Assembly: GCA_001818495.1 (NCBI GenBank) | Contig: MHKS01000005.1 | Location: forward strand, 402,584 to 466,583 | Direction: 5' to 3' | Origin: Candidatus Komeilibacteria bacterium RIFOXYD1_FULL_37_29 | GTDB taxonomy: Bacteria; Patescibacteriota; Patescibacteriia; UBA1558; GWA2-36-10 | DNA length: 64,000 nt | Shown: piece by piece, positions 8,693-24,246 of the stretch | How positions within the stretch are numbered: position 1 is the first letter of the stretch | Layout of the letters: every line of letters starts with the position of its first letter | Notes under the pieces: generated by a model | Database searches by the model: none | What the model was told of the DNA's origin: nothing | Seen by the model: only the letters and a program-made list of their open reading frames with translations | Made by a program: the position numbers and the translations under genes

Positions 8693-9930
8693 AAATCGGG
8701 ATAATTTCCAATGTCTATCCGCCTTTTATCAGGGGTGGAGCAGAAATAATAGCGGCTATGCAAGCGCAGGGCTTAAAGAGTAACTGGCAACATGTTTTTG
8801 TAATATCTAGCCGACCAGCCAAAGTTAAAGTGATTGGCGCTTCTATATTTACTAGTGGCGTTTGGTCTACCACCATTGATACGGTTGATGATATTGATGT
8901 TTATCGTTTTAATCCCAATAATATTTATTATTATTTGGATGATTTTAAGTATCCTTCTTTTGTTCGTCTATTTTGGCATCTCCTGGACACTTTTAATATT
9001 TTTTCTTATTTTAAAGTTAAAAATATTTTATTCAAGGAAAAGCCGGATGTAATCATTACCCATAATCTGATGGGCATTGGATTTTTGATACCAAAATTGA
9101 TCAAGAAATTAAAAATAAAACATGTGCACATCTTACATGATGTGCAACTGATTACTCCTTCGGGGTTGATATTAAAAGATAAAGAAGAGGCTACTAGTCA
9201 CAAGTTTTTTAAAATGATTGCTTATCCCAAGTTGATGAATTATCTAATGGCTACTCCGGATATTGTGATTTCTCCTTCCAAGTTTTTATTTGATTTTTAT
9301 AAAAAGAATAATTTTTTTGTAAAATCCAAAAAATTTGTGTTGCCCAATCCGATTAAAGCTTTGGTTAAATTGAATAAGCAAAATAATCCGAATTTGCACT
9401 TGGTTTATCTAGGACAGATCAATAAAGCTAAAGGAGTCTTAGATCTAATAGAGAGTTTTGCTAAAATAAAATTACCGCATATTAGATTGGGTATTGTGGG
9501 AGTGGGAGAGGATTTGAGTAAAGCCAAACGGCTTAGTCAAGGTGATAATAGGATAAAATTTTACGGCTGGCTAAATCACGAGAAACTAGGACCGCTTTTG
9601 TCCAAAGCCGATATAGTAGTAGTCCCATCTTTGTGTTATGAAAATTCTCCAACCGTTATTTATGAAGCCTTGAGTATGGGACTACCAGTTTTAGCCGCCG
9701 ATATTGGGGGAAACAGTGAGCTGATTAAAGAGGGTTTTAATGGCTGGGTTTTTCCAGCGGGGCAGTTTGAAGTGTTAAATAAAAAGATAATTAGTCTTTA
9801 TCAGCAAAGAGAAAAAATAAGCTCTATGGCCGATAATTGCCGGCGGAGCGTTAGTAATTGTGTTTTGGATAACTATACTATTAATTTACTCAAAATTATA
9901 AATGATGAATATCAGACTGACGCACAATAA
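8689..9930 (+). CDS. GT4 (GT-B fold) glycosyltransferase
   Basis: ENSPTVIYEALSMGLPVLAAD signature; overlaps the upstream stop. Confidence 0.65.
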   Translation: MKIGIISNVYPPFIRGGAEIIAAMQAQGLKSNWQHVFVISSRPAKVKVIGASIFTSGVWSTTIDTVDDIDVYRFNPNNIYYYLDDFKYPSFVRLFWHLLDTFNIFSYFKVKNILFKEKPDVIITHNLMGIGFLIPKLIKKLKIKHVHILHDVQLITPSGLILKDKEEATSHKFFKMIAYPKLMNYLMATPDIVISPSKFLFDFYKKNNFFVKSKKFVLPNPIKALVKLNKQNNPNLHLVYLGQINKAKGVLDLIESFAKIKLPHIRLGIVGVGEDLSKAKRLSQGDNRIKFYGWLNHEKLGPLLSKADIVVVPSLCYENSPTVIYEALSMGLPVLAADIGGNSELIKEGFNGWVFPAGQFEVLNKKIISLYQQREKISSMADNCRRSVSNCVLDNYTINLLKIINDEYQTDAQ

Positions 9931-11935: not shown

Positions 11936-12949
11936 ATGAAATTATTAGTTACAGGCGGAGCCGGTTTTATTGGCTCAAATTTTATCCATTATATATTAAA
12001 AAAATATCCGGATTATCAAGTGGTAAATTTGGACATTTTGACTTATGCCGGTAATTTGGAAAATCTTAAAGCAGTGGAGCTAAATCCCCAATATACTTTT
12101 GTTAAAGGTGACATCGGTGATTATGATTTAGTGGATAAAATTGTCAAAGATCATAAGGTAGATATGATTGTTAATTTTGCCGCTGAGTCACATAACAGCT
12201 GGGCTATTATTGATCCGGGAAAATTTTTTAAAACCAATGTTTTAGGCACACAGAATTTACTGGAGGTAGCGAGAAAAAATGGTGGTATTAGGTTTCATCA
12301 TATTTCTACTTGTGAGGTCTATGGTGATTTGCCTCTGGACAGTGATAAAAAATTTACGGAAAATTCTCCTTATTTACCGCGCACACCGTACAATGCTTCC
12401 AAAGCCGCTTCTGATTTGGCGGTGAGGGTTTATTTTGATACTTTTAAATTGCCAGTGACAATTTCCAATTGTTCCAATAATTATGGACCATATCAATTTC
12501 CGGAAAAATTAATACCGCTCTTTGTCACTAATTTACTTAAAAATAAAAAAGTACCGGTTTATAAAAATAGTCAAAATCGTCGGGAGTGGTTGCATGTTTT
12601 AGACCATTGTCAGGCCGTTGATTTGATTCTTCATCAAGGTAAAATTGGCGAAACCTATAATGTCGGTAGCGGAGTGGAACAAAGTGTTGAACAAATTACC
12701 GATTTTATACTAAAAGAATTGGGCCAGCCACAATCCATGAAAGAATATGTCCAGGATAGACCGGGCCATGATCGTCGTTATCTTTTGGATGCTTCTAAAA
12801 TTAAAAAAGAGCTGGGTTGGCAACCAAAAATTGCTTTTGAGCAGGGGCTCAAAGACACTATCAAGTGGTATATCGATAATCCTCGTTGGTGGCAGCCGCT
12901 TAAGGAAAAGAATATTTTAGTGGAGGGAGATTGGAGTAAGAAAAAATAA
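11936..12949 (+). CDS. rfbB: dTDP-glucose 4,6-dehydratase
   Basis: LLVTGGAGFIGSNFIHYIL, YNASKAASD (YxxxK), 337 aa; this is the typical RmlB pattern. Confidence 0.8.
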   Translation: MKLLVTGGAGFIGSNFIHYILKKYPDYQVVNLDILTYAGNLENLKAVELNPQYTFVKGDIGDYDLVDKIVKDHKVDMIVNFAAESHNSWAIIDPGKFFKTNVLGTQNLLEVARKNGGIRFHHISTCEVYGDLPLDSDKKFTENSPYLPRTPYNASKAASDLAVRVYFDTFKLPVTISNCSNNYGPYQFPEKLIPLFVTNLLKNKKVPVYKNSQNRREWLHVLDHCQAVDLILHQGKIGETYNVGSGVEQSVEQITDFILKELGQPQSMKEYVQDRPGHDRRYLLDASKIKKELGWQPKIAFEQGLKDTIKWYIDNPRWWQPLKEKNILVEGDWSKKK

Positions 12950-12976: not shown

Positions 12977-13987
12977 TTGATTATGGAGCAGCAAATATTT
13001 AAAAAAGAATATACTCGTGATAATGCTTTGATTATCCAAGAGGTTTGGGGTAGAGCACATATGATAGATGTTGATGCTAATTCTAATCCTTACTTACCAA
13101 CGCAAGTAATTTATATTAACGATGGAGTAGCGGAAATTTGGAATAATGAGCGCTCCATCGAGTGGCTGGAAAGAAAATTACTGGAAAAAAATCAAACTGC
13201 TCCAGATTTTTTTTGGCAAAAAATGGAGGAATATGATAGACAGCTGGTTAATTTAAAAAAATATTGGCGAAAGCATCATTTAGATTCAGTGGCCGAACTA
13301 AGAGATTTTATTGGCTTGATGCGAGCCGCTACCAGAAATTTTTTAGTTTTTTATTATTCAGCTATCAGTCAAAAAACACCAGACAAGATAAAATCTCGGG
13401 CTTTAGAAATTCGGGAGCAAGATACTTTTTACGATGATTCCAATCGGCTGATCTTTAATACTTTAGAATACGTATATCCGGAAATAAAAGGTTTGGGCAT
13501 CACTGTATTAGAAAGAGATTTGAATCAATTTCCTAGTCCCCAGGAACTAAAAGAAAGATTTCAAAATTTTGTCTATATTACGGATGAAACGGCTGAGGCT
13601 ATAAATCTTAAAAAATTTTTAAGTAAGAACAAGCAATACAAATTTATTTTTAATCAAATAGAGGACCAGACTCAGGTTTTTGGTCAAGTAGCGCATCGGG
13701 GCAAAGTAAACGGGCGAGTGAGGATTTTAAAAAGAAAAAATCAAGTAGTTGAGTTTAAACCAGGTGAAATATTAGTTTCTCCTATGACTACTCCTGATTT
13801 TGTGCCAGCTATGAAGTTGGCGGCTGCTTTTGTCACTGACGAAGGAGGAATTGGTTGTCATGCCGCTATTTTAGCTAGAGAATTAAAAGTTCCTTGTGTG
13901 ATTGGTACTAGATTCGCTACCCAAGTTTTTAAAGACGGAGATATGGTGGAGGTGGATGCTGAGAAGGGCATCGTTAAAAAGATATAA
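12977..13987 (+). CDS. Paralog P1: novel N-terminal domain fused to a PEP-utilizing enzyme mobile (phospho-His swivel) domain
   Basis: C-terminal G.V.GRVRIL...PGEILVSPMTTPDFVPAMKLAAAFVTDEGGIGCHAAILARELKVPCVIGT, the PF00391-type phosphohistidine domain; the N-terminal roughly 230 aa have no recognisable family. Confidence 0.7.
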   Translation: MIMEQQIFKKEYTRDNALIIQEVWGRAHMIDVDANSNPYLPTQVIYINDGVAEIWNNERSIEWLERKLLEKNQTAPDFFWQKMEEYDRQLVNLKKYWRKHHLDSVAELRDFIGLMRAATRNFLVFYYSAISQKTPDKIKSRALEIREQDTFYDDSNRLIFNTLEYVYPEIKGLGITVLERDLNQFPSPQELKERFQNFVYITDETAEAINLKKFLSKNKQYKFIFNQIEDQTQVFGQVAHRGKVNGRVRILKRKNQVVEFKPGEILVSPMTTPDFVPAMKLAAAFVTDEGGIGCHAAILARELKVPCVIGTRFATQVFKDGDMVEVDAEKGIVKKI

Positions 13988-13991
13988 AACC

Positions 13992-15065
13992 ATGATTGAA
14001 GAAATAAAAAAATATAAATTAACAGCTTATGGTGGAGTAAAACGTAACCTTTCTTTATTTACTTATAGTTGCATAGGGCGGGCCTATGTGCACAGTATGA
14101 TAAAATTTGCCAAGGTAAGTTATGGTCCTATAGCTGCTTACGGTAATAAAGATTATTGGTATTCTTTGTTCAATATGAAATATTTGACTGATACGGTGGC
14201 TCAAAGCATGGAACGGGATAGTAGATGGTTGGACAAAGTAAGGAAAAAATCAATAGATAATTTTAATAAGTTTAAGATAAATTTTAATAGACAAATAAAA
14301 TTTGTTGAATCAAAGCCAATGGATTTTTTGGCTTGGATCATAAAAAATTATCCTGGTTATTTTGTCATTTTAGGATTGTATAATGGACTGTGGCGTTATA
14401 AGGAATATAGTAAGGATAGTCAGCCCGCCATAGATGATGGTAGTGTTGAAGAAATAGCCAAAGAAAGAAGTCAAGTAGCAATACTTTATCCTTTGGTGGA
14501 GAAGTACTTAAAAGAGGCTATTAAATCAATGTCTTTAAATATTGGTTTGGCAGAAATAGACTATCTATTATTGACCAGAGGAGAATTGCAACGTGTAGTG
14601 GAAAAAAAACTTATAAATAAAGAATTGCAAAGCTTAATAAAGAAAAGGGGCCAGGGGTATGTGTATTTATATAATGGTAATAGAGAAACGATTGTCTCTG
14701 ACCAAGAAATTTTAAAAAAAGTTAGAGACTACGCTATCCCTAAAATAAAAAATGTAAGTATTTTGCAAGGCACAGTAGCTTATAGTGGTTTTGTTGATGG
14801 TACAGTAGTTTTTGATTTAAAAAAGATGCTAGATTATCGAAAGGCAGTTTATATTACAAACATGACTCATCCAGATGAAATACCGTGGCTTAAAAAAGTT
14901 TCAGCTATAGTAACAGATGAGGGGGGAGTATTGTCTCACGTGGCGATTATTGCAAGAGAACTTAAAATTCCTACACTTATGGGCACAAAAATTGCTACCC
15001 AAGTTTTTAAAGACGGTGATATGGTAGAGGTTGACGCTATTAAAGGAATAGTAAAGAAAATATAA
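13992..15065 (+). CDS. Paralog P2: divergent N-terminal domain plus PEP-utilizing mobile domain
   Basis: TDEGGVLSHVAIIARELKIPTLMGT. The track ORF starts at 13902 and would overlap P1; the in-frame ATG at 13992, just after the P1 stop, is the more likely start. Confidence 0.65.
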   Translation: MIEEIKKYKLTAYGGVKRNLSLFTYSCIGRAYVHSMIKFAKVSYGPIAAYGNKDYWYSLFNMKYLTDTVAQSMERDSRWLDKVRKKSIDNFNKFKINFNRQIKFVESKPMDFLAWIIKNYPGYFVILGLYNGLWRYKEYSKDSQPAIDDGSVEEIAKERSQVAILYPLVEKYLKEAIKSMSLNIGLAEIDYLLLTRGELQRVVEKKLINKELQSLIKKRGQGYVYLYNGNRETIVSDQEILKKVRDYAIPKIKNVSILQGTVAYSGFVDGTVVFDLKKMLDYRKAVYITNMTHPDEIPWLKKVSAIVTDEGGVLSHVAIIARELKIPTLMGTKIATQVFKDGDMVEVDAIKGIVKKI

Positions 15066-15075
15066 ATAAAATAAT

Positions 15076-16128
15076 ATGGCGGATACATTAGATAGTTTAA
15101 AAAAATACCACTGGAAGTCAATTTGGGCTGGGGATTGGACAATAATGCCGTGCTCTGATTGGGGTGAACATTATATTACCACGTTGAGGGTCAATGGGGA
15201 GCCATTTGTTAGGCGAGTAGTATTTATATTTGAAAATGGAAAAAGCTCATGCTGGGTGACAGAAGAGGATATTTCGGTATTTCATGACAGAATGATAAAG
15301 ATGGTGGATGATAAAATGTCCAATGTTAACATCTTGGCTAATAATCTGGTACAAGCGGCCAAAGCAGCTTTAGAATACATGGATGAGAATAAAAATTTTA
15401 TAGATTACGAAACGTATAATAGGTATCGGGAGATCATACGTACTTATTATAATGCTCATATGCCGGTAAAGTATTTTGCTGATGCTTTGACTGGTCAGCA
15501 ACTGGAAGAGTTTTTACCAATTTTACAAAAAGCCAGAGTAGAGGCTGAGTCAGTATTCACAAATACTATTTTATTTGACAAGATGATTGTCAAAAATATT
15601 GGGGAAAAAACTGGGATAGCAGAAGGGCTATTATTAAATACCACTAGAGATGAGTTATTGCATATATGGAGGAATAAAGCGCCTTTGCCAAAAGACATAA
15701 AACAACGGCATTCATTTTCAGCTTTAGTATTTGAAAATAAAGATCCAAAATTATTTGTTGGTAATAAAGCTAAAGAAATATTAGCTACTTTAGCCAGAGT
15801 AGACACTAAAGAAAATATTGTAGGTAGCACAGCTTATCCGGGTAAGATTGTGGGTAGAGTAAAAATTGTTTTAGACCCAACTAATGTTAGAGATTTTCGT
15901 CAGGGCGATGTTTTAGTTACACGTATGACTAGACCAGAATTTTTACCTTTAATGAAAATGGCTTCTGGTTTTGTGACCGATGCCGGTGGTATTTTAAGTC
16001 ATGCCGCTATCACAGCCAGAGAATTAAAAAAACCATGTATAATTGGAACTAAAGTAGCTACCCAAGTTTTTAAAGACGGTGATATGGTAGAGGTTGACGC
16101 TATTAAAGGAATAGTAAAGAAAATATAA
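15076..16128 (+). CDS. Paralog P3: divergent N-terminal domain plus PEP-utilizing mobile domain
   Basis: [25 protein letters not shown]; the last 73 nt are identical to the P2 3' end. Confidence 0.7.
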
Positions 16129-16129
16129 A

Positions 16130-17149
16130 ATGGATATAGATTTTGACTACAGTTTAGAATATGAAAGACATCAAAGGGACTATTCTATTTTAGGGACCAC
16201 TATTGTTTTTCGAGGATTATTTAAACAAAATGCTAGATTTTTTGGTGTTATCCCTAATCCTGTTTATTTTTTGGTTAAGGACGATATTTTATATCATTAT
16301 ATGGCGAAAAAAGATGGCGTCAGCCGAATGGAAAATTGGCTTAAGAAAAATGATCTGAATTCATTTAAAAAAATAGAAAAGTTTTATTCTGCTCGCTTGA
16401 AAGAATTTAATAAATTTATATTAAAACAGCCAGAAAATTTAGAACTGGCTATTAAGCAAGCCGAGGAGTTTTTTGTTGATTTTACGGAAATAATCCTTTT
16501 GGGGTATGAATTACCTCTTTATATGAAAGATAAAGCATCTTCAGAGATTATAGATTTTGCTTTAGCTAGTAGGGAAAAATATGAAAATGTCCATAAGATA
16601 AACTTTTCCATTATAGAAAAACTATTGAATCAGCTGGAAAAAAACAGAGACATACCCAAGGACACTTTAAAATATTTAACCATTGAGGAATTGGAAGATT
16701 TTTTACGGAACAATAAATTAGCAGATATTGGATATAGAAAAAAGTATATTGTAGTTAAATATGATGGTAATTATTCCTTTTTTTATGATCCTAATCTTTG
16801 GAATATTTTAAATCCTAAAGTAGCTAGAGATTTTGTCAAAGGAAATACTGCTTATAAAGGGATAGTCAGGGGGACTGTTAAGATTATTAAAAAAATTACA
16901 GAAGCAGCCGAGTTAAAAAAGGGACAAATTTTAATAACTAGTATGACTGATCCGCGCTATGTACCAGCTATGAAAAAAGCCGCAGCGATTGTCACTGACG
17001 AGGGTGGTATAACTTGTCATGCTGCTATAGTGTCTCGGGAATTAAAAATACCTTGTGTAATAGGGACAAAAGAAGCTACTCAAGTATTTAAAGACGGAGA
17101 TATGGTGGAAGTTGATGCTAATCAGGGAATAGTGAGAAAAATAAAGTAA
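16130..17149 (+). CDS. Paralog P4: divergent N-terminal domain plus PEP-utilizing mobile domain
   Basis: [25 protein letters not shown]. Confidence 0.7.
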
Positions 17150-17299: not shown

Positions 17300-18133
17300 A
17301 TGAAGATTTTAATCATTGGAAAAGGGTATTTAGGCACTCGTTGCGCTGTGGCCTGGAAAAATGCCGTAATTAGCGACAAGATAATAGCCACAGTTAAAGA
17401 CGTGGAAGAACTGATAGACCAGCATCATCCGGACGGTATTTTAAATGCGGCTGGTGTAGTCGGCAAACCAAATGTAGATTGGTGTGAAACTCATCAAATA
17501 GAAACCCTTAAGGGTAATACTATTTTGCCGTTGATTATAGCCGAAGCTTGTCAAAATAAGGGTATTTATCTTTTGCATATGGCTACGGGTTGTGTTTTTT
17601 ATGGACAGTCTCCTCACGGTGGTCCTTGGACAGAAGAGGACTATGGTAATCCAGCAGCCGTTTATACTAAGTCAAAATTTGCGGCTGATTTAGTTTTGTC
17701 TACTTTACCCAATGTTGGTATTGCTCGTATTCGGATGCCGTTTGATAGCCAGTCACATCCCGCCAATCTCATTGATAAGCTATCTAAATATGAAAAGATA
17801 GTTGATGTAGAAAATTCCATGACTGTGGTTGATGATATGGTTGATGTTTTTTATAAACTTTTAGAAAAGAAAGCCGAAGGCATATTTCACGTGACCAACC
17901 CTGGATCAATCAAACACAAAGAAATAATGGAGCTGTATAAAAAATATGTTGATCCCAGTCATAGCAATAAGTGGATTACTGAAGAAGATTTGGTAAAGCT
18001 TGGTCTGGCTAATAAAAAAAGATCAAATAATATCATGACCTCTATAAATCTTAAAAAATACGGCATTACAATGCGGCCGATTAAAGAAGCCGTTACAGAG
18101 GCTCTTAAAAAATATGCTAAAGGTAAAAAATAA
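17300..18133 (+). CDS. dTDP-4-dehydrorhamnose reductase-like (RmlD family, extended SDR)
   Basis: N-terminal MKILIIGKGYLG Rossmann motif, NAAG, YTKSK (YxxxK); 277 aa; sits immediately upstream of rmlA. Confidence 0.5.
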   Translation: MKILIIGKGYLGTRCAVAWKNAVISDKIIATVKDVEELIDQHHPDGILNAAGVVGKPNVDWCETHQIETLKGNTILPLIIAEACQNKGIYLLHMATGCVFYGQSPHGGPWTEEDYGNPAAVYTKSKFAADLVLSTLPNVGIARIRMPFDSQSHPANLIDKLSKYEKIVDVENSMTVVDDMVDVFYKLLEKKAEGIFHVTNPGSIKHKEIMELYKKYVDPSHSNKWITEEDLVKLGLANKKRSNNIMTSINLKKYGITMRPIKEAVTEALKKYAKGKK

Positions 18134-18135
18134 TT

Positions 18136-18864
18136 ATGAGAGGAATAATTTTAGCCGGTGGAGCCGGTAATAGGTTAAAACCATTAACAAAAGTAACTTC
18201 TAAACAGTTGTTACCGATTTATGATCAGCCGATGATCTATTATCCACTTCAGACCTTAATCAATGGTGGCATCCAAGATATCTTAGTTATTTCCGATCCC
18301 AATAATATCGGCAATATTGTTAGACTACTGGGCAGTGGTAAAGATTTTGGTGTCAGAATTCGTTATGAAGTCCAAGATAGTCCCGATGGATTAGCTCAAG
18401 CGTTTTTACTGGGGGAGATTTTTATTGGTGATGACGATGTCACTTTGATATTGGGTGATAATTTATTTGTCGGTGACGGTAAATTTTTAGAAGAAGCTAT
18501 CAGAAGTTTTAAAGGTGGCGGTCGGGTTTTTGCTAAGGAAGTGCCAGATCCAGAAAGATATGGTGTGGTAGATTTTGACAAAAAAGGTCAAGCCATTAGT
18601 ATTGAAGAAAAACCAAAAAATCCCAAGAGTAATTATGCGGTCACGGGTTTATATATTTATGATAATGGGGTGATTGCTAAAGCTAAAAGTCTAAAACCTT
18701 CTGCTCGTGGAGAGCTGGAGATTACTGATGTTAATAATCTTTACCTTAAAGAAGGTCGCTTAGATGTCAGAATTTATAAAGACTATTGGTTGGATACCGG
18801 TACTTTTGACGCCTTACTTGAAGCCGGTAATACTATTGCTAAACTGAGAAAAGCCGGCAAATAA
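18136..18864 (+). CDS. rmlA: Glucose-1-phosphate thymidylyltransferase (short form)
   Basis: MRGIILAGGAGNRLKPLTKVTSKQLLPIYDQPMIYYPL, a near-canonical RmlA N-terminus. Confidence 0.8.
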   Translation: MRGIILAGGAGNRLKPLTKVTSKQLLPIYDQPMIYYPLQTLINGGIQDILVISDPNNIGNIVRLLGSGKDFGVRIRYEVQDSPDGLAQAFLLGEIFIGDDDVTLILGDNLFVGDGKFLEEAIRSFKGGGRVFAKEVPDPERYGVVDFDKKGQAISIEEKPKNPKSNYAVTGLYIYDNGVIAKAKSLKPSARGELEITDVNNLYLKEGRLDVRIYKDYWLDTGTFDALLEAGNTIAKLRKAGK

Positions 18865-18866
18865 GT

Positions 18867-19709
18867 ATGAATTTTGAAAGTCTTAATGTAGAAAAAGAAG
18901 CTAAGGGTGAAAATGTAACTGTTCATTCTGTTTTTATTCGTCATGGAGAAAAATTTCACGATATAAATAATCCAGAGACAGATCTGACCCCTAAGGGAGA
19001 AGAGGCTAGCCGTGAAATTGGAAAAAATAGGCCGGAAGTTGATGCTATTAAAGGGTATAGTAGTGATACTCAGAGAACAAAATATACTACCAGGTCCATA
19101 GTTGAGCAGTCTCCTACAGAAAACAAGTTAACTCAACGCATCAGAAATGGCTTGGGTATTAGGTATGATTCAGGTAATGAATTTACCAAGAAATTGCAAG
19201 GGATAAAAGAAGAGTTGCTGGGAAAAGGGTATGATGATTTATCAGAGGAGCAAAAAGTAGCCAGGTTAGATGAATACAACTCTGTTATAACTGATTGTTA
19301 TTTAGCTTTGGGCGATAAGCGGCCGGACCCAAATACCTATTCTCCAGTAGAAACAGCCGCTACTATGGCCAAGATATTGAATAATAATATCAGGATGGCC
19401 GATAGATTAAAAGCTAATTCAAAAGTTGATTTGGTCAATGCCACACATGATTTTAATATAGTGGCTTTCTTGAAGGAAGTTTTGGTAAGAAACATAGATG
19501 ATAAAAGAGTAGTTGGTTTTGATTCTGTTAAGGAAATAGGGGGGAGCATGGAATTTAATGGTGGTTTTGAAGTTTTAATAAAAACAGATGATGGTGGCCA
19601 TAAAACTCTAAAAATATTATTTAGGGGAGAAGAATACGAAATAGACGAGACTAGATTAACCGAGCTAGTAGAAATTGCCAAAGGTTTAAAAAAGCAGGAT
19701 AAAAAATAA
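18867..19709 (+). CDS. Histidine phosphatase superfamily protein (SixA/PGAM branch)
   Basis: FIRHGEK (RHG catalytic motif), DLTPKGEEASREIG, SSDTQRTKYTTRSI (the S..QRA..T motif). Confidence 0.6.
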   Translation: MNFESLNVEKEAKGENVTVHSVFIRHGEKFHDINNPETDLTPKGEEASREIGKNRPEVDAIKGYSSDTQRTKYTTRSIVEQSPTENKLTQRIRNGLGIRYDSGNEFTKKLQGIKEELLGKGYDDLSEEQKVARLDEYNSVITDCYLALGDKRPDPNTYSPVETAATMAKILNNNIRMADRLKANSKVDLVNATHDFNIVAFLKEVLVRNIDDKRVVGFDSVKEIGGSMEFNGGFEVLIKTDDGGHKTLKILFRGEEYEIDETRLTELVEIAKGLKKQDKK

Positions 19710-19724
19710 TATAGTAATTTATAT

Positions 19725-20015
19725 ATGTCGAAATTAAATATAAAACCATCAGCCGAAGGTAAGGTTAATAAAAAAATTGACCAAGAATCTAAATTAGATA
19801 AATTAAATAAGATCTTAGACCATATTAGACCAGCCTTAGAAAGAGATGGCGGTAATTTAGCTCTAATCAGTTATGATGCTAAAAAGGGGATAGTGGAAGT
19901 CAGCTTTCAAGGTGCTTGTGCTCATTGTTCCTTGGCCAATGTCACTTTAAAGCATTTGATTGAGGCAGAAATTAGAGATCAGATGCCAGAAGTCAAAGAA
20001 GTAAGAGCAGTTTAA
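19725..20015 (+). CDS. NifU-like (Nfu C-terminal domain) Fe-S cluster scaffold/carrier protein
   Basis: GGNLALISYD..GIVEVSFQGACAHCSLANVTLKHLIEAEI; the CxxC Nfu signature. Confidence 0.7.
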   Translation: MSKLNIKPSAEGKVNKKIDQESKLDKLNKILDHIRPALERDGGNLALISYDAKKGIVEVSFQGACAHCSLANVTLKHLIEAEIRDQMPEVKEVRAV

Positions 20016-20092: not shown

Positions 20093-20671
20093 CTACTCTT
20101 CGATCCAGACGGCTTTGATCGAGCCGTCGTCGTATAGGTTGAAGCGAATCGCTTCCATGGAGTTGAGGCTGCGGGCCTCGGTCATGCCGATGGACTTTGC
20201 CAACATCGGAATGGTGGGATCGTGGAAGATCCCGACACCGATCTGGCCGTCGTTCATCAGGTCGAACATCTTTCGTAGAGCACTCTGAGCGTCGCTCTTA
20301 AACTGATCGAAAACTGACGGATCCATGTGTTTGAGCACAGCCTCCATATTAGAGAGGCCGTCTTTGATGTCGGCGCGCATGGCGTCAGTGATAGTCTTCT
20401 GGAAGAATTCGGCGGAGCCGAGGCCGTCAACGGCATCGTGGATTTCCATCTCCTGGAAGGGGTCGGACATCATCCGCATGGCGGCGAGAGTCTCACTGGT
20501 GCGGATCAGCGGTCCGTGGAAACCGTGGGAGATCTTGGTGTCGGATGTGTTGTACAGTCTGTCACCGGTGTTGTAGGCCAATTCGGCCCCGGCATGAGAA
20601 ATGTGGTTTCCGCTTTTATCCTTATCGGAGTGGCGGAACAAGTCCAGAGTTTTTACAACAAACTTGGCCAT
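20093..20671 (-). CDS. Histidine-phosphatase-superfamily-like protein encoded in a GC-rich islet
   Basis: LFRHSDKD (an RHG-like RHS variant), HGPLIRTSETLAAM, C-terminal IFHDPT. Local GC is far above the flanks, and several overlapping stop-free frames on both strands are typical of high-GC DNA. Confidence 0.5.
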   Translation of the reverse strand: MAKFVVKTLDLFRHSDKDKSGNHISHAGAELAYNTGDRLYNTSDTKISHGFHGPLIRTSETLAAMRMMSDPFQEMEIHDAVDGLGSAEFFQKTITDAMRADIKDGLSNMEAVLKHMDPSVFDQFKSDAQSALRKMFDLMNDGQIGVGIFHDPTIPMLAKSIGMTEARSLNSMEAIRFNLYDDGSIKAVWIEE

Positions 20672-20872: not shown

Positions 20873-22681
20873 ATGTTGGAAAAAATTATCAATTCTAAAA
20901 CTCGTTTGGCTATATTGGCTATGTTTTTTCAAGGCAAAGAAACAGAATTATCGGCTAGTCAGATAGTCAAAAAAAGCAAACTTGATCCAGCCAATGTCCA
21001 TAAGGAAATTAGTAATCTATTGGCTGGTAAATTTATTTTGCAAAAAGAGGCCATGGGGCGTAAATATTTTTGTGTGAATACAGGTACTGTATTTTATGAT
21101 GGTTTGGTAAAGATATTTAAAAATTATAAAATTAATCAATTTGGTGAAGAATGGTTTTCGCTAGAATCAGTACCAAATTATTATCCAATGATGGTGGCTT
21201 TTGCTTGGAATGTAAAGCGAGCTAATGATTTTTTAAAAAGTCGTGGTTTTAAAAATAAGTTTACCAAATTGTTGACTACTTATGACAACAATATTAATGA
21301 TTTGTTAATCATTAAAAAAGAATTTGATGCTTTATCCCAAGAAACTTTGGAAAAAGTTAGTTTTGATCCCAGTTGGGGACAGCAATATATTGATGATTTA
21401 TCAGCCGAGGTTGATAATTTAATTAAAGCTACTAATGATTTAGAGAAAGTAAATTTAGGAAAATTATCCAATAAAGAATTGTATGATTTATATCAGGAGT
21501 ATTATGCTGTCTATGGCCAACTTCATATTTTTCACTGGATTCAAACCGTAGCGGATTTTGGTGATAATCTTTTTTCCAAATATTTAATGAATTATTTGCG
21601 TCAGAAGATCAAAGACAGCCAATATTCTTTGGGGGAAGTATTTTCTACTTTGACGACTCCTACTAAAGATGGTGAAACGACTAAAGAATATAAAAATTTA
21701 TTAAATATTTTAGAGGACATAATTTCGGATCAAGATTTAAAAAAATATTTTAAAGATACAGAAACTCGTATTATTGTTCGCGATTTAAAAAATGTCAATA
21801 AGGTTATGGATGAAAAAATTTTAAATCACGTTACGAGGTATGGTTATCTTGGCTATGGTACAGTCGGACCTAACTGGGGTAAAGATTATTTTATTGATAT
21901 TTTAGGCTCTTTAGTCAGACAAAATACCAAGCCAGCTGAGTTGCTTGATAATTTGCAGAAAGATAAGTTAAATATTGAAGTCAAGCAACAAAAATTTATT
22001 AAACAACTGGAGATAGAGGAGAAATATCAGCAATTATTTGAAGTAGCCAGAGGTTTAGTTTTCACCAAGGGTAGCCGTAAAGAGTCCATGTTTCATAGCT
22101 ATAGTATTATAGACCATTTATTTAGAGAAATCGGTCGTCGTTATTATTTATCGGTTAATCAAGTCAGATATTTCTATCCTCATGAATTTGAAGATTTATT
22201 GCTTCATAATAAATTTAGTGCCGCTAAATTAAATGAGCGTTATAAATTTAGTTTGCAGTATTCCCTAGGTGATTATAGTCAGGATAAATTATTAGAAGAT
22301 GAGGAAGCTAGAAAATTTTTAGAAAATTTTAATATTGTCAAAGAGGAAATTGCTGATATTAAAGTAATGGAAGGAGACTGTGCTTCTCCTGGTCGGGCTC
22401 GTGGTAGCGCCAAAATTATCAATATACCCAAAGATATGAGTAAAATGGAGCAAGGTGATGTTCTGGTATCTATTGCTACTAACCCCGATTTAGTGCCAGC
22501 TATTAAGAAAGCTAGTGCTATTGTCACCGATGTCGGGGGCATTACCTGTCATGCCGCTATAGTGTCTCGAGAATTGGGTATTCCTTGTGTTATTGGTACC
22601 AAAATAGCCACTAAAGTCTTAAAAGACGGTGATGTGGTAGATGTGGACGCTACCCATGGTAAAGTTACGATTGTCCGGTAG
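20873..22681 (+). CDS. Paralog P5: N-terminal winged-helix (MarR/ArsR-like) DNA-binding domain, long central region, C-terminal PEP-utilizing mobile domain
   Basis: N-terminus TRLAILAMFFQGKETELSASQIVKKSKLDPANVHKEISNLLAGKFI (wHTH pattern); C-terminus GDCASPGRARGSAKII...[49 protein letters not shown]. Confidence 0.65.
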   Translation: MLEKIINSKTRLAILAMFFQGKETELSASQIVKKSKLDPANVHKEISNLLAGKFILQKEAMGRKYFCVNTGTVFYDGLVKIFKNYKINQFGEEWFSLESVPNYYPMMVAFAWNVKRANDFLKSRGFKNKFTKLLTTYDNNINDLLIIKKEFDALSQETLEKVSFDPSWGQQYIDDLSAEVDNLIKATNDLEKVNLGKLSNKELYDLYQEYYAVYGQLHIFHWIQTVADFGDNLFSKYLMNYLRQKIKDSQYSLGEVFSTLTTPTKDGETTKEYKNLLNILEDIISDQDLKKYFKDTETRIIVRDLKNVNKVMDEKILNHVTRYGYLGYGTVGPNWGKDYFIDILGSLVRQNTKPAELLDNLQKDKLNIEVKQQKFIKQLEIEEKYQQLFEVARGLVFTKGSRKESMFHSYSIIDHLFREIGRRYYLSVNQVRYFYPHEFEDLLLHNKFSAAKLNERYKFSLQYSLGDYSQDKLLEDEEARKFLENFNIVKEEIADIKVMEGDCASPGRARGSAKIINIPKDMSKMEQGDVLVSIATNPDLVPAIKKASAIVTDVGGITCHAAIVSRELGIPCVIGTKIATKVLKDGDVVDVDATHGKVTIVR

Positions 22682-22747: not shown

Positions 22748-23686
22748 ATGGAATTAATTAGAGATTTTAAAAAATTGGACAAACACGCTGTTGCTTTGGC
22801 TGGCGGAAAAGGGGCCTCTCTGGGCGAGATGACCAAAGCCGGTATTCCGGTGCCACCGGGATTTGTAGTGTTATCAGCTGCTTTTGAAAAATTTTTAGAG
22901 GAAACTGATCTAAATGTTGAAATTGATGCTGTTATAAAAACAGTCAAACACGAAGATATAAATCTAGTAGAGCAGGCCTCGGTTAAAATCAGGGATTTAA
23001 TCAGTGACGCCCAGATGCCGGACGATATAGCCAAAGAAATAAAAGCAGAGTTTAAAAAAATGGATGCTAAATATGTAGCGGTGCGTTCTTCAGCCACTGC
23101 TGAGGACTCTTCAGTAGCTTCTTGGGCCGGAGAATTAGAATCATATCTTAATACCACTGAAAAAGATTTATTAGATAAAGTCAAAAAATGTTGGTCTTCA
23201 CTTTTTACACCGCGGGCTATTTTTTATCGTTTTGAAAAAAAACTTCAAGATGCCAAAGTTTCTGTAGCCGTAGTAGTGCAGAAAATGGTGCAATCAGAAG
23301 TATCGGGGATTACTTTTACAGTTCATCCGGTCACCGAAGACAGAGACCAGATGGTGATTGAGGCAGGTTGGGGACTAGGAGAGGCTATTGTTTCCGGCAT
23401 GGTGACACCTGATGCTTATGTGATTGATAAAAAAGATTTCTCTATTATGGATATAAATATTGCTGATCAAGCTAAAAAAATTATAAAAACTCCCAAGGGT
23501 AATCAATTTGTAGAAGTAGAGCATAATAAAAGAGAAGAACAAAAATTGGGCGGTGTTCAGATTATAGAGCTGGCCAAAATTTGTGCTGGCATTGAAAAAC
23601 ATTATGGCTTTCCCTGTGATATTGAGTGGGCTTATGAAAAGGGTGATTTTTATATAGTCCAGTCTCGGCCGATTACTACTTTATAA
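22748..23686 (+). CDS. Stand-alone PEP synthase/pyruvate phosphate dikinase N-terminal ATP-binding (ATP-grasp) domain protein
   Basis: VALAGGKGASLGEMTKAGIPVPPGFVV and VAVRSSATAEDSSVASWAGELESYLN, the hallmark PPDK_N (PF01326) motifs. 312 aa with no His or TIM-barrel domain. Confidence 0.75.
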   Translation: MELIRDFKKLDKHAVALAGGKGASLGEMTKAGIPVPPGFVVLSAAFEKFLEETDLNVEIDAVIKTVKHEDINLVEQASVKIRDLISDAQMPDDIAKEIKAEFKKMDAKYVAVRSSATAEDSSVASWAGELESYLNTTEKDLLDKVKKCWSSLFTPRAIFYRFEKKLQDAKVSVAVVVQKMVQSEVSGITFTVHPVTEDRDQMVIEAGWGLGEAIVSGMVTPDAYVIDKKDFSIMDINIADQAKKIIKTPKGNQFVEVEHNKREEQKLGGVQIIELAKICAGIEKHYGFPCDIEWAYEKGDFYIVQSRPITTL

Positions 23687-23754: not shown

Positions 23755-24246
23755 TTAGGCTTCAGTTTCGCCAAGTTGTTCGAGAATCGAACAACCGAGT
23801 TCATCGTTGTCATCGATGGTAATCTCTACGACCGAGCCACTTTTGGCAACTTCGATACCCAGAGATTTGGCGAAAGGTCGGCCGGTGCAGAGCACGGCCT
23901 GATCAGGCAGAGAGCGGAGAAAGTTGTGGATGGCCGGAGCCATGTCCTGGATGCCGGTGTATTGCTCGTACCAGCAGGCGGTGCCGTCGGCAAATATGAT
24001 GGTCGGATTGCCGTCGATGGTATCCATCGATGTGGCGTCTCCTAAGAGGAGAGTAGAGCGGGTCATTTCCAGACCTAATGTGGCGGCAACGTGCCGATGT
24101 CGGCGACCAGTACCACATATGATGGCAGAAGGGTTGTCAGGGAGTAAGTCCTTTAGAGACTCAATTTGATTTACTCCGGAAGGAGTCATAGTTGGGTCAG
24201 CACCTTCGTGCTTGTCGCCGTGTAAAACCGCATAAATCGTCTTCAT
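23755..24246 (-). CDS. SixA-like phosphohistidine phosphatase-family protein in a GC-rich islet, with the catalytic Arg replaced (LHG instead of RHG)
   Basis: IYAVLHGDKHEG...MTPSGVNQIESL...GTGRRHRHVAATL aligns to the SixA N-terminal pattern (RHG...LT..G..Q...S...RA..TA). High local GC with overlapping stop-free frames. Confidence 0.45.
   Translation of the reverse strand: MKTIYAVLHGDKHEGADPTMTPSGVNQIESLKDLLPDNPSAIICGTGRRHRHVAATLGLEMTRSTLLLGDATSMDTIDGNPTIIFADGTACWYEQYTGIQDMAPAIHNFLRSLPDQAVLCTGRPFAKSLGIEVAKSGSVVEITIDDNDELGCSILEQLGETEA

Follow-up and report, generated by a model that had tools for sequence, protein, structure and literature searches.

We analysed a tandem gene array in a stretch of 64,000 nt from Candidatus Komeilibacteria bacterium RIFOXYD1_FULL_37_29 (contig MHKS01000005.1), hereafter called the window, in whose numbering positions are given. 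The array consists of four tandem genes on the same strand, P1 to P4, and a fifth paralog, P5, further on, which is followed by a stand-alone ATP-grasp gene. The 3' ends of P2 and P3 are identical over 73 nt, and this identity is most likely the footprint of a recent short-tract gene conversion, within a recurrent process that is confined to the conserved 3' end of the genes. On the best reading it is the latest of recurrent exchanges among the tails of the array. An initial annotation of the window, made from the letters alone, had pointed out the identical ends and offered two explanations, namely recent gene conversion or cassette-like concerted evolution among tandem paralogs, and strong constraint on a docking segment. 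It proposed to examine them by pairwise nucleotide alignment of the four genes, a profile of synonymous-site divergence and a comparison with orthologous loci.

The 73-nt identity through the stop codon and one further base proved to be exact, with a mismatch at the first base outside on either side and thus zero extension. The two copies are located as follows:

14994..15066, plus strand: identical tract copy 1, end of P2, comprising the last 23 codons, the TAA stop and 1 nt
16057..16129, plus strand: identical tract copy 2, end of P3, comprising the last 23 codons, the TAA stop and 1 nt

A nucleotide alignment of the 3' ends showed that the identity has a sharp onset after the GTK codons and runs as far as the beginning of the downstream genes; it is confined to the tail and lies far above the level seen upstream. 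In an AlphaFold2 model of P3 the tract encodes the final helix (residues 328-331) and the beta-hairpin (337-341 and 346-349) of a swivel domain. P1 and P4 carry a diverged version of the same tail, as had been noted: in comparisons with P2 and P3 and with each other, 20-22 of 23 residues are the same and codon identity is 52-63% (11/21 to 12/19). The P1 tail, for instance, shares 22 of 23 amino acids with the P2/P3 tail and 11 of 21 codons.

We then compared the identity with what the encoded peptide would impose. Where P2 and P3 specify the same residue by a degenerate codon, the codons are identical in 22 of 22 cases within the tract, compared with 17 of 36 in the adjoining 75 upstream codons of the domain (Fisher p=1e-5). 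Given the peptide and the codon usage of the window, the probability of 23 identical codons is 2.8e-8, and the codon identity expected from window usage for the tail peptide is about 48% (sum of per-residue values). Full synonymous identity is seen in the P2/P3 tail alone, with background levels upstream and in P1 and P4. Since the other tails encode nearly the same peptide and differ in about half of their codons, the nucleotides do not follow from the tail peptide. Constraint on a docking segment consequently fails as the cause of the nucleotide identity, because selection on the protein cannot fix synonymous sites, and it accounts for no more than a large part of the conservation of the peptide.

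A homolog search with P2 yielded a 70%-identical protein (P0121/L088) on a 702-kb Patescibacteria contig. This locus, L088, is identical to L089 and L071 over the compared genes, and the three were taken as the same species, which gives one syntenic species in all. The gene order in L088 is syntenic with the window (glycosyltransferases, HIT, RmlB, P1o, P2o, P4o, RmlD, RmlA, NifU, P5o, with o denoting the ortholog), and the orthologs share 77% (P1o), 70% (P2o), 68% (P4o) and 79% (P5o) amino acid identity with the window proteins. In the 150 nt before the tail, orthologs agree at 133 (P1/P1o), 121 (P2/P2o) and 125 (P4/P4o) of 150 positions, i.e. 81-89%, while paralogs agree at only 79-107 positions (53-71%). 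In the 69-nt tail, orthologs agree at 54-58 positions (78-84%) and the paralogs of the window at 56-57 positions (81-83%), with 69 of 69 for P2 and P3; the tails of the P1, P2 and P4 orthologs thus carry 11-15 differences in 69 positions relative to the window copies. The window P2/P3 tail is closest to the P1o tail of the relative (60/69). Variable sites concordant with orthology amount to 35 of 89 upstream versus 2 of 25 in the tail (p=0.003), and sites that are fixed within each genome yet differ between the genomes number two, both of them in the tail. As the ortholog signal is strong upstream and gone in the tail, the tails of P1, P2 and P4 have been exchanged since the two genomes diverged. 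Orthologs at this locus, in other words, group in the flank and not in the tail, and such a tail-restricted loss of the orthology signal is the classical signature of concerted evolution. A separate observation concerns RmlA (window 18136-18864, L088 15403-16131), which shows 99% amino acid identity compared with 68-91% for the neighbouring genes; this could reflect very strong constraint or recent exchange.

To see the array in the context of its family we screened species-representative genomes with the tail peptides ATQVFKDG and DMVEVDA[IEN], which matched 350 stretches; the confirmed loci belong mostly to CPR (candidate phyla radiation) bacteria and to the small-celled DPANN archaea. The resulting family set comprises 85 sequences, 84 related loci and the window, in which a swivel-domain hidden Markov model identified 401 genes, mostly in same-strand tandem arrays of 4-8 and at maximum 13 genes, and always with the swivel domain at the extreme C-terminus. 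Exact matches of at least 40 nt were found in 8 of 1078 within-genome paralog pairs across the 85 loci, all ending within about 120 nt of the stop codon (75 and 59 nt in L047, 73 nt in the window, 57 nt in L020, 56 nt through the stop in L009, 47 nt in L042, 44 nt in L057 and 41 nt in L054). The N-terminal parts of these tract-sharing pairs give no or weak BLASTP matches. Of between-genome pairs matched for GC content (within 3%), 2 of 21335 reach 40 nt (p=1e-9 versus within-genome pairs); one of these involves the same gene at two loci, the other probably a pair of orthologs.

Conservation in the family is highest in the tail, where many consensus columns reach 80-90% or more, and the window tail is near the consensus of 360 members. 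This family-wide conservation accounts for a large part of the likeness of the P1-P4 tail peptides, though not the whole: their mean tail amino acid identity is 0.92, compared with 0.65±0.08 for random between-genome sets of four (p=0.0002), and the other two thirds of the domain match the null value. Tail-specific homogeneity at p<0.01 was found in 6 of 59 genomes, and the columns with the largest excess of within-genome agreement (107, 90, 101, 108 and 95) all lie in the tail. In 98.6% of cases the closest relative of an N-terminal domain belongs to another genome, so that the array members are old paralogs and not locally diversifying cassettes. The P2/P3 event itself is specific to this lineage; next to the closest available P3 homologs (66% identity, on short contigs) the upstream neighbour's tail differs from the P3-like tail. 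The best P2 homolog is 70% identical.

Synonymous identity in P2 and P3 only, loss of orthology in the tail and recurrence in other arrays together support recent gene conversion or concerted evolution among tandem paralogs. The term cassette-like, taken as a dedicated recombinase system, found no support: no recombinase was seen among the neighbours annotated in window 1-27 kb, the repeats are variable coding tails and not fixed sites, and the N-terminal domains have orthologs elsewhere. These properties also set the array apart from integron- or shufflon-like systems.

The conversion would have joined the 3' ends of P2 and P3 as partners in a non-reciprocal homologous recombination or a template switch. 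The last 25-40 or so swivel codons are the most conserved stretch of the family, and because these codons are conserved, it would be only here that paralogs remain similar enough in nucleotide sequence to recombine. Conversion tracts would accordingly begin where the similarity begins and stop where the genes end. On this reading, recurrent conversion has removed the signal of orthology to the syntenic genome from the tails of P1, P2 and P4 and has left similar tracts in unrelated CPR and DPANN arrays. Transfer may have run from P3 to P2 or in the reverse direction, the tract matching the P2 ortholog at 58 of 69 nt and P3-like tails at about 55 of 72 (hand count). According to the initial annotation the tail could be the part that contacts the shared ATP-grasp protein, and homogeneous tails might in addition be favoured if all modules have to fit one ATP-grasp partner.

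A number of points weigh against this explanation. The orthology evidence comes from only one syntenic species. The 3' edge of the tract abuts non-homologous sequence; as classical double-strand-break repair needs homology on both sides, a template-switch or insertion-linked event may fit better. The synonymous excess outside P2/P3 is weak: the window tails share only 23-nt runs, with individual p values of about 0.006-0.013 before correction for multiple comparisons. Across the family, synonymous identity in the tail is 0.48 for all pairs within genomes and 0.41 between genomes, and this modest excess implies that conversion is sporadic, not pervasive.

Among the alternatives, the duplicated tail could be the junction repeat left by gain or loss of a gene, with P3 inserted between P2 and P4 (e.g. 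from an excised one-gene circle that integrated by recombination in the tail), or with identical tails having deleted P3 in the relative. In L088 the P2 ortholog is directly followed by that of P4 with no P3 between them, and the P2o/P4o junction resembles the P3/P4 junction of the window. No protein from NCBI, JGI or ENA sources is more than 52% identical to P3, which makes it probable that the relative is without P3. In the window, the repeat unit of spacer, P3 body and tail measures 1063 bp and has perfect direct repeats on both sides. The arrays also differ after P4, where the relative alone has d468, a 468-aa swivel gene, and e308, a 308-aa histidine-phosphatase-like gene with an RHGEK motif (the stretches concerned are window 15076-16128 versus L088 10001-12105, and L088 12102-14443). 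Just after e308, and followed by the conserved rmlD promoter region, L088 carries an orphan tail, IEVDATKGIVRKV with its stop codon, that has no swivel domain in front of it. Further orphan tails ending in VEVDAxKGIVRK and a stop were found, so that the full set is L088 14460-14500 (equivalent to L089 11991 and L071 14822), L011 13216, L023 6515, L076 3677, L077 6201, where an unrelated 289-aa open reading frame (ORF) has the tail fused to its end, and L044 8898. A crossover between diverged tails, however, yields two reciprocal hybrids and not identical copies, so that conversion or mismatch repair would still be needed for the identity. Moreover, the GC content of P3 equals that of the neighbouring genes, the relative is distant (70-80% amino acid identity) and the difference in P3 may be an old one, and the polarity of gain versus loss cannot be set without an outgroup. 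On balance we consider gain or loss of P3 an unlikely origin of the identity.

The remaining explanations are much less probable still. Purifying selection alone, acting on a docking or structural tail, would be in keeping with the family-wide conservation of the tail, with the many matches of the tail-peptide patterns in species-representative genomes and with the position of the tail as terminal helix and hairpin of a confidently modelled domain. It is nevertheless very improbable, and already contradicted as sole explanation, by P1 and P4, which keep 20-22 of 23 residues and change about half of the codons, by the 11-15 tail differences in the orthologs of P1, P2 and P4, and by the probability of about 3e-8 for 22 of 22 identical codons. 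There is equally little to recommend a functional nucleotide element in the 3' end, be it for ribosome binding and translational coupling, an RNA structure or a recombination site. The next start codon does follow 1-10 nt after each tail, orphan tails persist ahead of downstream genes, and in many other arrays the tail codons for V-R-K-I plus stop read GTGAGGAAAATATGA (e.g. L041 around 9361-9404, L020 around 13141-13184, L088 11085-11095), that is, a Shine-Dalgarno-like AGGA and then an ATG that overlaps the preceding gene's stop codon, an arrangement suggestive of translational coupling within the array. Against this, no Shine-Dalgarno-like motif near the P3 or P4 start was evident on reading the window tract, and the P1 tail, which likewise precedes the P2 start, differs at 13 of 69 positions. 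The tract folds no more stably than shuffled sequences (z=-0.07) and has no match in Rfam. Promoter-like sites occur at the shuffled expectation with none inside either tract, and terminator-like matches number 6 versus 2.3±2.0 expected, again with none in either tract. At most the last 15 nt or so could plausibly take part in initiation, not 73. Least probable of all is an artefact of assembly or polishing by which two similar tails became identical. The window is probably from a metagenome-assembled genome, as its relatives all are, but both copies have unique flanks, and 73 nt is shorter than typical reads and than the k=141 that k141 assembly names imply by assembler convention. Comparable tracts are moreover present in the independent assemblies L047, L020, L009, L042, L057 and L054, which have varied name styles (k141_, NODE_, scaffold_).

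The initial annotation had suggested that the tract could drive deletion or duplication. This is plausible in view of the missing P3 in the relative, the orphan tails and the differences in gene content at boundaries near tails, all of which fit the suggestion and do not prove it. The orphan tails may be fossils of deleted array genes or insertion junctions, and the tails may, to judge from their position, be sites where array genes are gained and lost.

The genes of the array and the ATP-grasp gene are the following:

12983..13987, plus strand: P1, 334 aa, diverged N-terminal domain and C-terminal PF00391 (E=3.9e-25), tail at 13916-13987
13992..15065, plus strand: P2, 357 aa, PF00391 (E=3.2e-21), with the ATG at 13992 read from the sequence as the likely start
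15076..16128, plus strand: P3, 350 aa, PF00391 (E=4.5e-24), fold like that of rifampin phosphotransferase (RPH), no ortholog at the syntenic position in the relative
16130..17149, plus strand: P4, 339 aa, PF00391 (E=1.2e-27), tail at 17075-17149
20873..22681, plus strand: P5, 602 aa, fifth paralog, PF00391 (E=4.6e-24), N-terminal part longer and tail more diverged (ATKVLKDGDVVDVDATHGKVTIVR)
22748..23686, plus strand: stand-alone ATP-grasp protein (PPDK_N), 312 aa, PF01326 (E=1.5e-101), directly after P5

All five proteins contain the PF00391 swivel phosphohistidine domain (75-96 bits versus a cutoff of 23.1) with a conserved GGxxxH(A/V)A motif, and Pfam gave no other domain in P1-P5. The AlphaFold2 model of P3, built from 119 homologs, has a pLDDT of 96.5. 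Its top Foldseek matches are structures of RPH (5fbu and 5fbt; 5fbu with E=3.2e-11 over 327 columns and a TMq of 0.42), and the match spans both the N-terminal domain and the swivel domain. The top six matches are all RPH (E=3e-11 to 3e-9, 269-386 columns), with TMq values of only 0.29-0.43 and an N-terminal domain about half the size of the rifampin-binding domain of RPH. By sequence, PDB matches are confined to the swivel domain (phosphoenolpyruvate (PEP) synthases 8a8e and 9dae, RPH 5fbs and 5hv1), and nothing was found in PDB for the N-terminal parts. NCBIfam gave no whole-protein assignment, all scores being far under the cutoffs (e.g. 69 bits versus 999 for P3). An identity of P1-P5 as PEP synthase or pyruvate phosphate dikinase (PPDK) was rejected, since they have no PEP/pyruvate-binding domain and score 91-138 bits with the NCBIfam PEP synthase models against cutoffs of 598-740. 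The ATP-grasp protein reaches 299 bits with the NCBIfam model of RPH, over the N-terminal 313 positions of that model, and is the sole phmmer match of its kind in the window.

P2 and P3 had been described as strongly diverged upstream of the tract and as having different N-terminal domains. The strong divergence is real; the domains are not different ones. P1 and P3 are 32% identical over their full length, and an alignment of the P2-family with the P3-family profile spans 345 columns at a probability of 100%, much of the score coming from the common swivel domain. Judged by sequence comparison, the N-terminal parts of P1-P4 are extremely diverged but homologous copies of one domain.

Together with the ATP-grasp gene, P1-P5 look like a split, one-to-many version of two-component RPH-like dikinases. 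P1-P5 would be the acceptor halves of such a split dikinase, each with a diverged substrate-binding domain followed by the C-terminal swivel domain, and the separate ATP-grasp protein at 22748-23686, the presumed shared phosphoryl donor component, would charge their catalytic histidines. A tentative extension, which we rate as possible and no higher, is that a single, highly conserved ATP-grasp protein charges the swivel histidines of 4-13 different RPH-like substrate modules. The tail would then be kept uniform within a genome as protein, for compatibility with the partner, and would serve as DNA as the recombination joint for homogenising, gaining and losing modules. This picture is consistent with the orphan tails and with the fact that P3 and d468 are each present in one relative and absent from the other.

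In RPH, the beta-phosphate of ATP is picked up at the ATP-grasp domain and delivered to the substrate domain by the shuttling His domain (PMC4844700). RPH (5fbs, 5fbt, 5fbu, 5hv1) resembles the array proteins in giving the best structural match to the P3 model over both domains and in its C-terminal swivel domain, but is a single chain of about 865 aa, whereas the enzyme is split here; the TM-score is only 0.42, and the domain orientations differ. PEP synthase and PPDK have homologous ATP-grasp and swivel domains, and 8a8e and 9dae are the best PDB sequence matches for the swivel domain; the PEP/pyruvate-binding domain sets them apart from P1-P5. Closer in organisation are HpeHI, CreHI and the phenylphosphate synthase PpsAB, in which a separate ATP-grasp component acts with a RIF-binding-like/swivel protein that carries the catalytic His (PMC12167813). 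The window shares with them a PPDK_N component encoded nearby, and its second component may likewise combine a RIF-binding-like substrate domain with a swivel domain. The differences lie in number, as those systems are described as pairing one ATP-grasp with one swivel component and the window has one ATP-grasp gene for five acceptor genes (up to 13 elsewhere), in size, the acceptors of 334-357 aa (about 40 kDa) being about half of the 71 kDa of HpeH, and in genomic setting. Here the array lies in a sugar-nucleotide/glycosyltransferase cluster with RmlB at 11936, RmlD at 17300, RmlA at 18136 and several GT2/GT4 genes upstream, with no aromatic-catabolic genes among the neighbours annotated in window 1-27 kb.

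Concerted evolution by gene conversion between bacterial paralogs has its textbook examples in tufA/tufB of Salmonella and in rRNA operons. The array shows the same non-reciprocal homogenisation, with synonymous identity and with orthology lost in the converted segment only. Unlike in those examples, the tracts measure 40-75 nt and sit at the extreme 3' end of paralogs that are otherwise invisible to BLAST, in CPR and DPANN tandem arrays that have as many as 13 genes. As a new example of a well-known process, the P2/P3 conversion has low novelty of its own; the array itself is more interesting. The arrangement of one ATP-grasp protein with many RPH-like acceptor modules is widespread in CPR and DPANN genomes and apparently undescribed, as we found no description of such arrays in the searchable literature. 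The conversion does offer a clean, small example of domain-limited concerted evolution, and indicates that homologous exchange works in these reduced genomes on tracts of just 40-75 nt. It also means that trees and orthology calls made from the C-terminal swivel domain of array proteins will mislead. If the arrays encode multi-substrate dikinases, they could be a significant, unstudied route for activating, scavenging or detoxifying small molecules in these symbionts.

Of the 85 sequences, 38 have a PPDK_N-like ORF next to the array, and in 37 of them it is a single ORF; the two overlapping partial PPDK_N ORFs of L077 are probably one frameshifted gene. Fusions of the PPDK_N part with a swivel gene also occur at some loci. 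Arrays of 4-13 genes each ending in PF00391 are seen e.g. in L002 (1-16454), L079 (1-16269), L031 and L084, and in most of L006-L084. We also noted giant ORFs with several substrate-domain plus swivel units in one frame in L061 (1961-9089), L080 (7888-15076), L049 (8977-14605) and L056 (4416-8667), which look like an array turned into a single polypeptide; those of L061, L080 and L049, not that of L056, include a PPDK_N domain. In L002 a PycTM-domain gene (19413-19973) directly follows the PPDK_N gene of a 12-gene array. The Pfam family PycTM takes its name from the transmembrane effector in the Pycsar systems, which act against phages.

The window contains no tRNA. Two minus-strand ORFs, 20093-20671 (192 aa) and 23755-24246 (163 aa), flank the pair of P5 and the ATP-grasp gene and have a GC content of 54-56% compared with about 33-35% for the genome. 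Neither has a Pfam match; the former has an RHS motif near its N-terminus that is reminiscent of histidine phosphatases. His_Phos_1 genes with an RHGEK motif recur near arrays, as tblastn showed, namely in the window (18867-19709), in L088 (13517-14443 and 16134-16903) and in L039, L015 and L043. These array-adjacent proteins of the histidine-phosphatase superfamily might act on the products of the dikinases.

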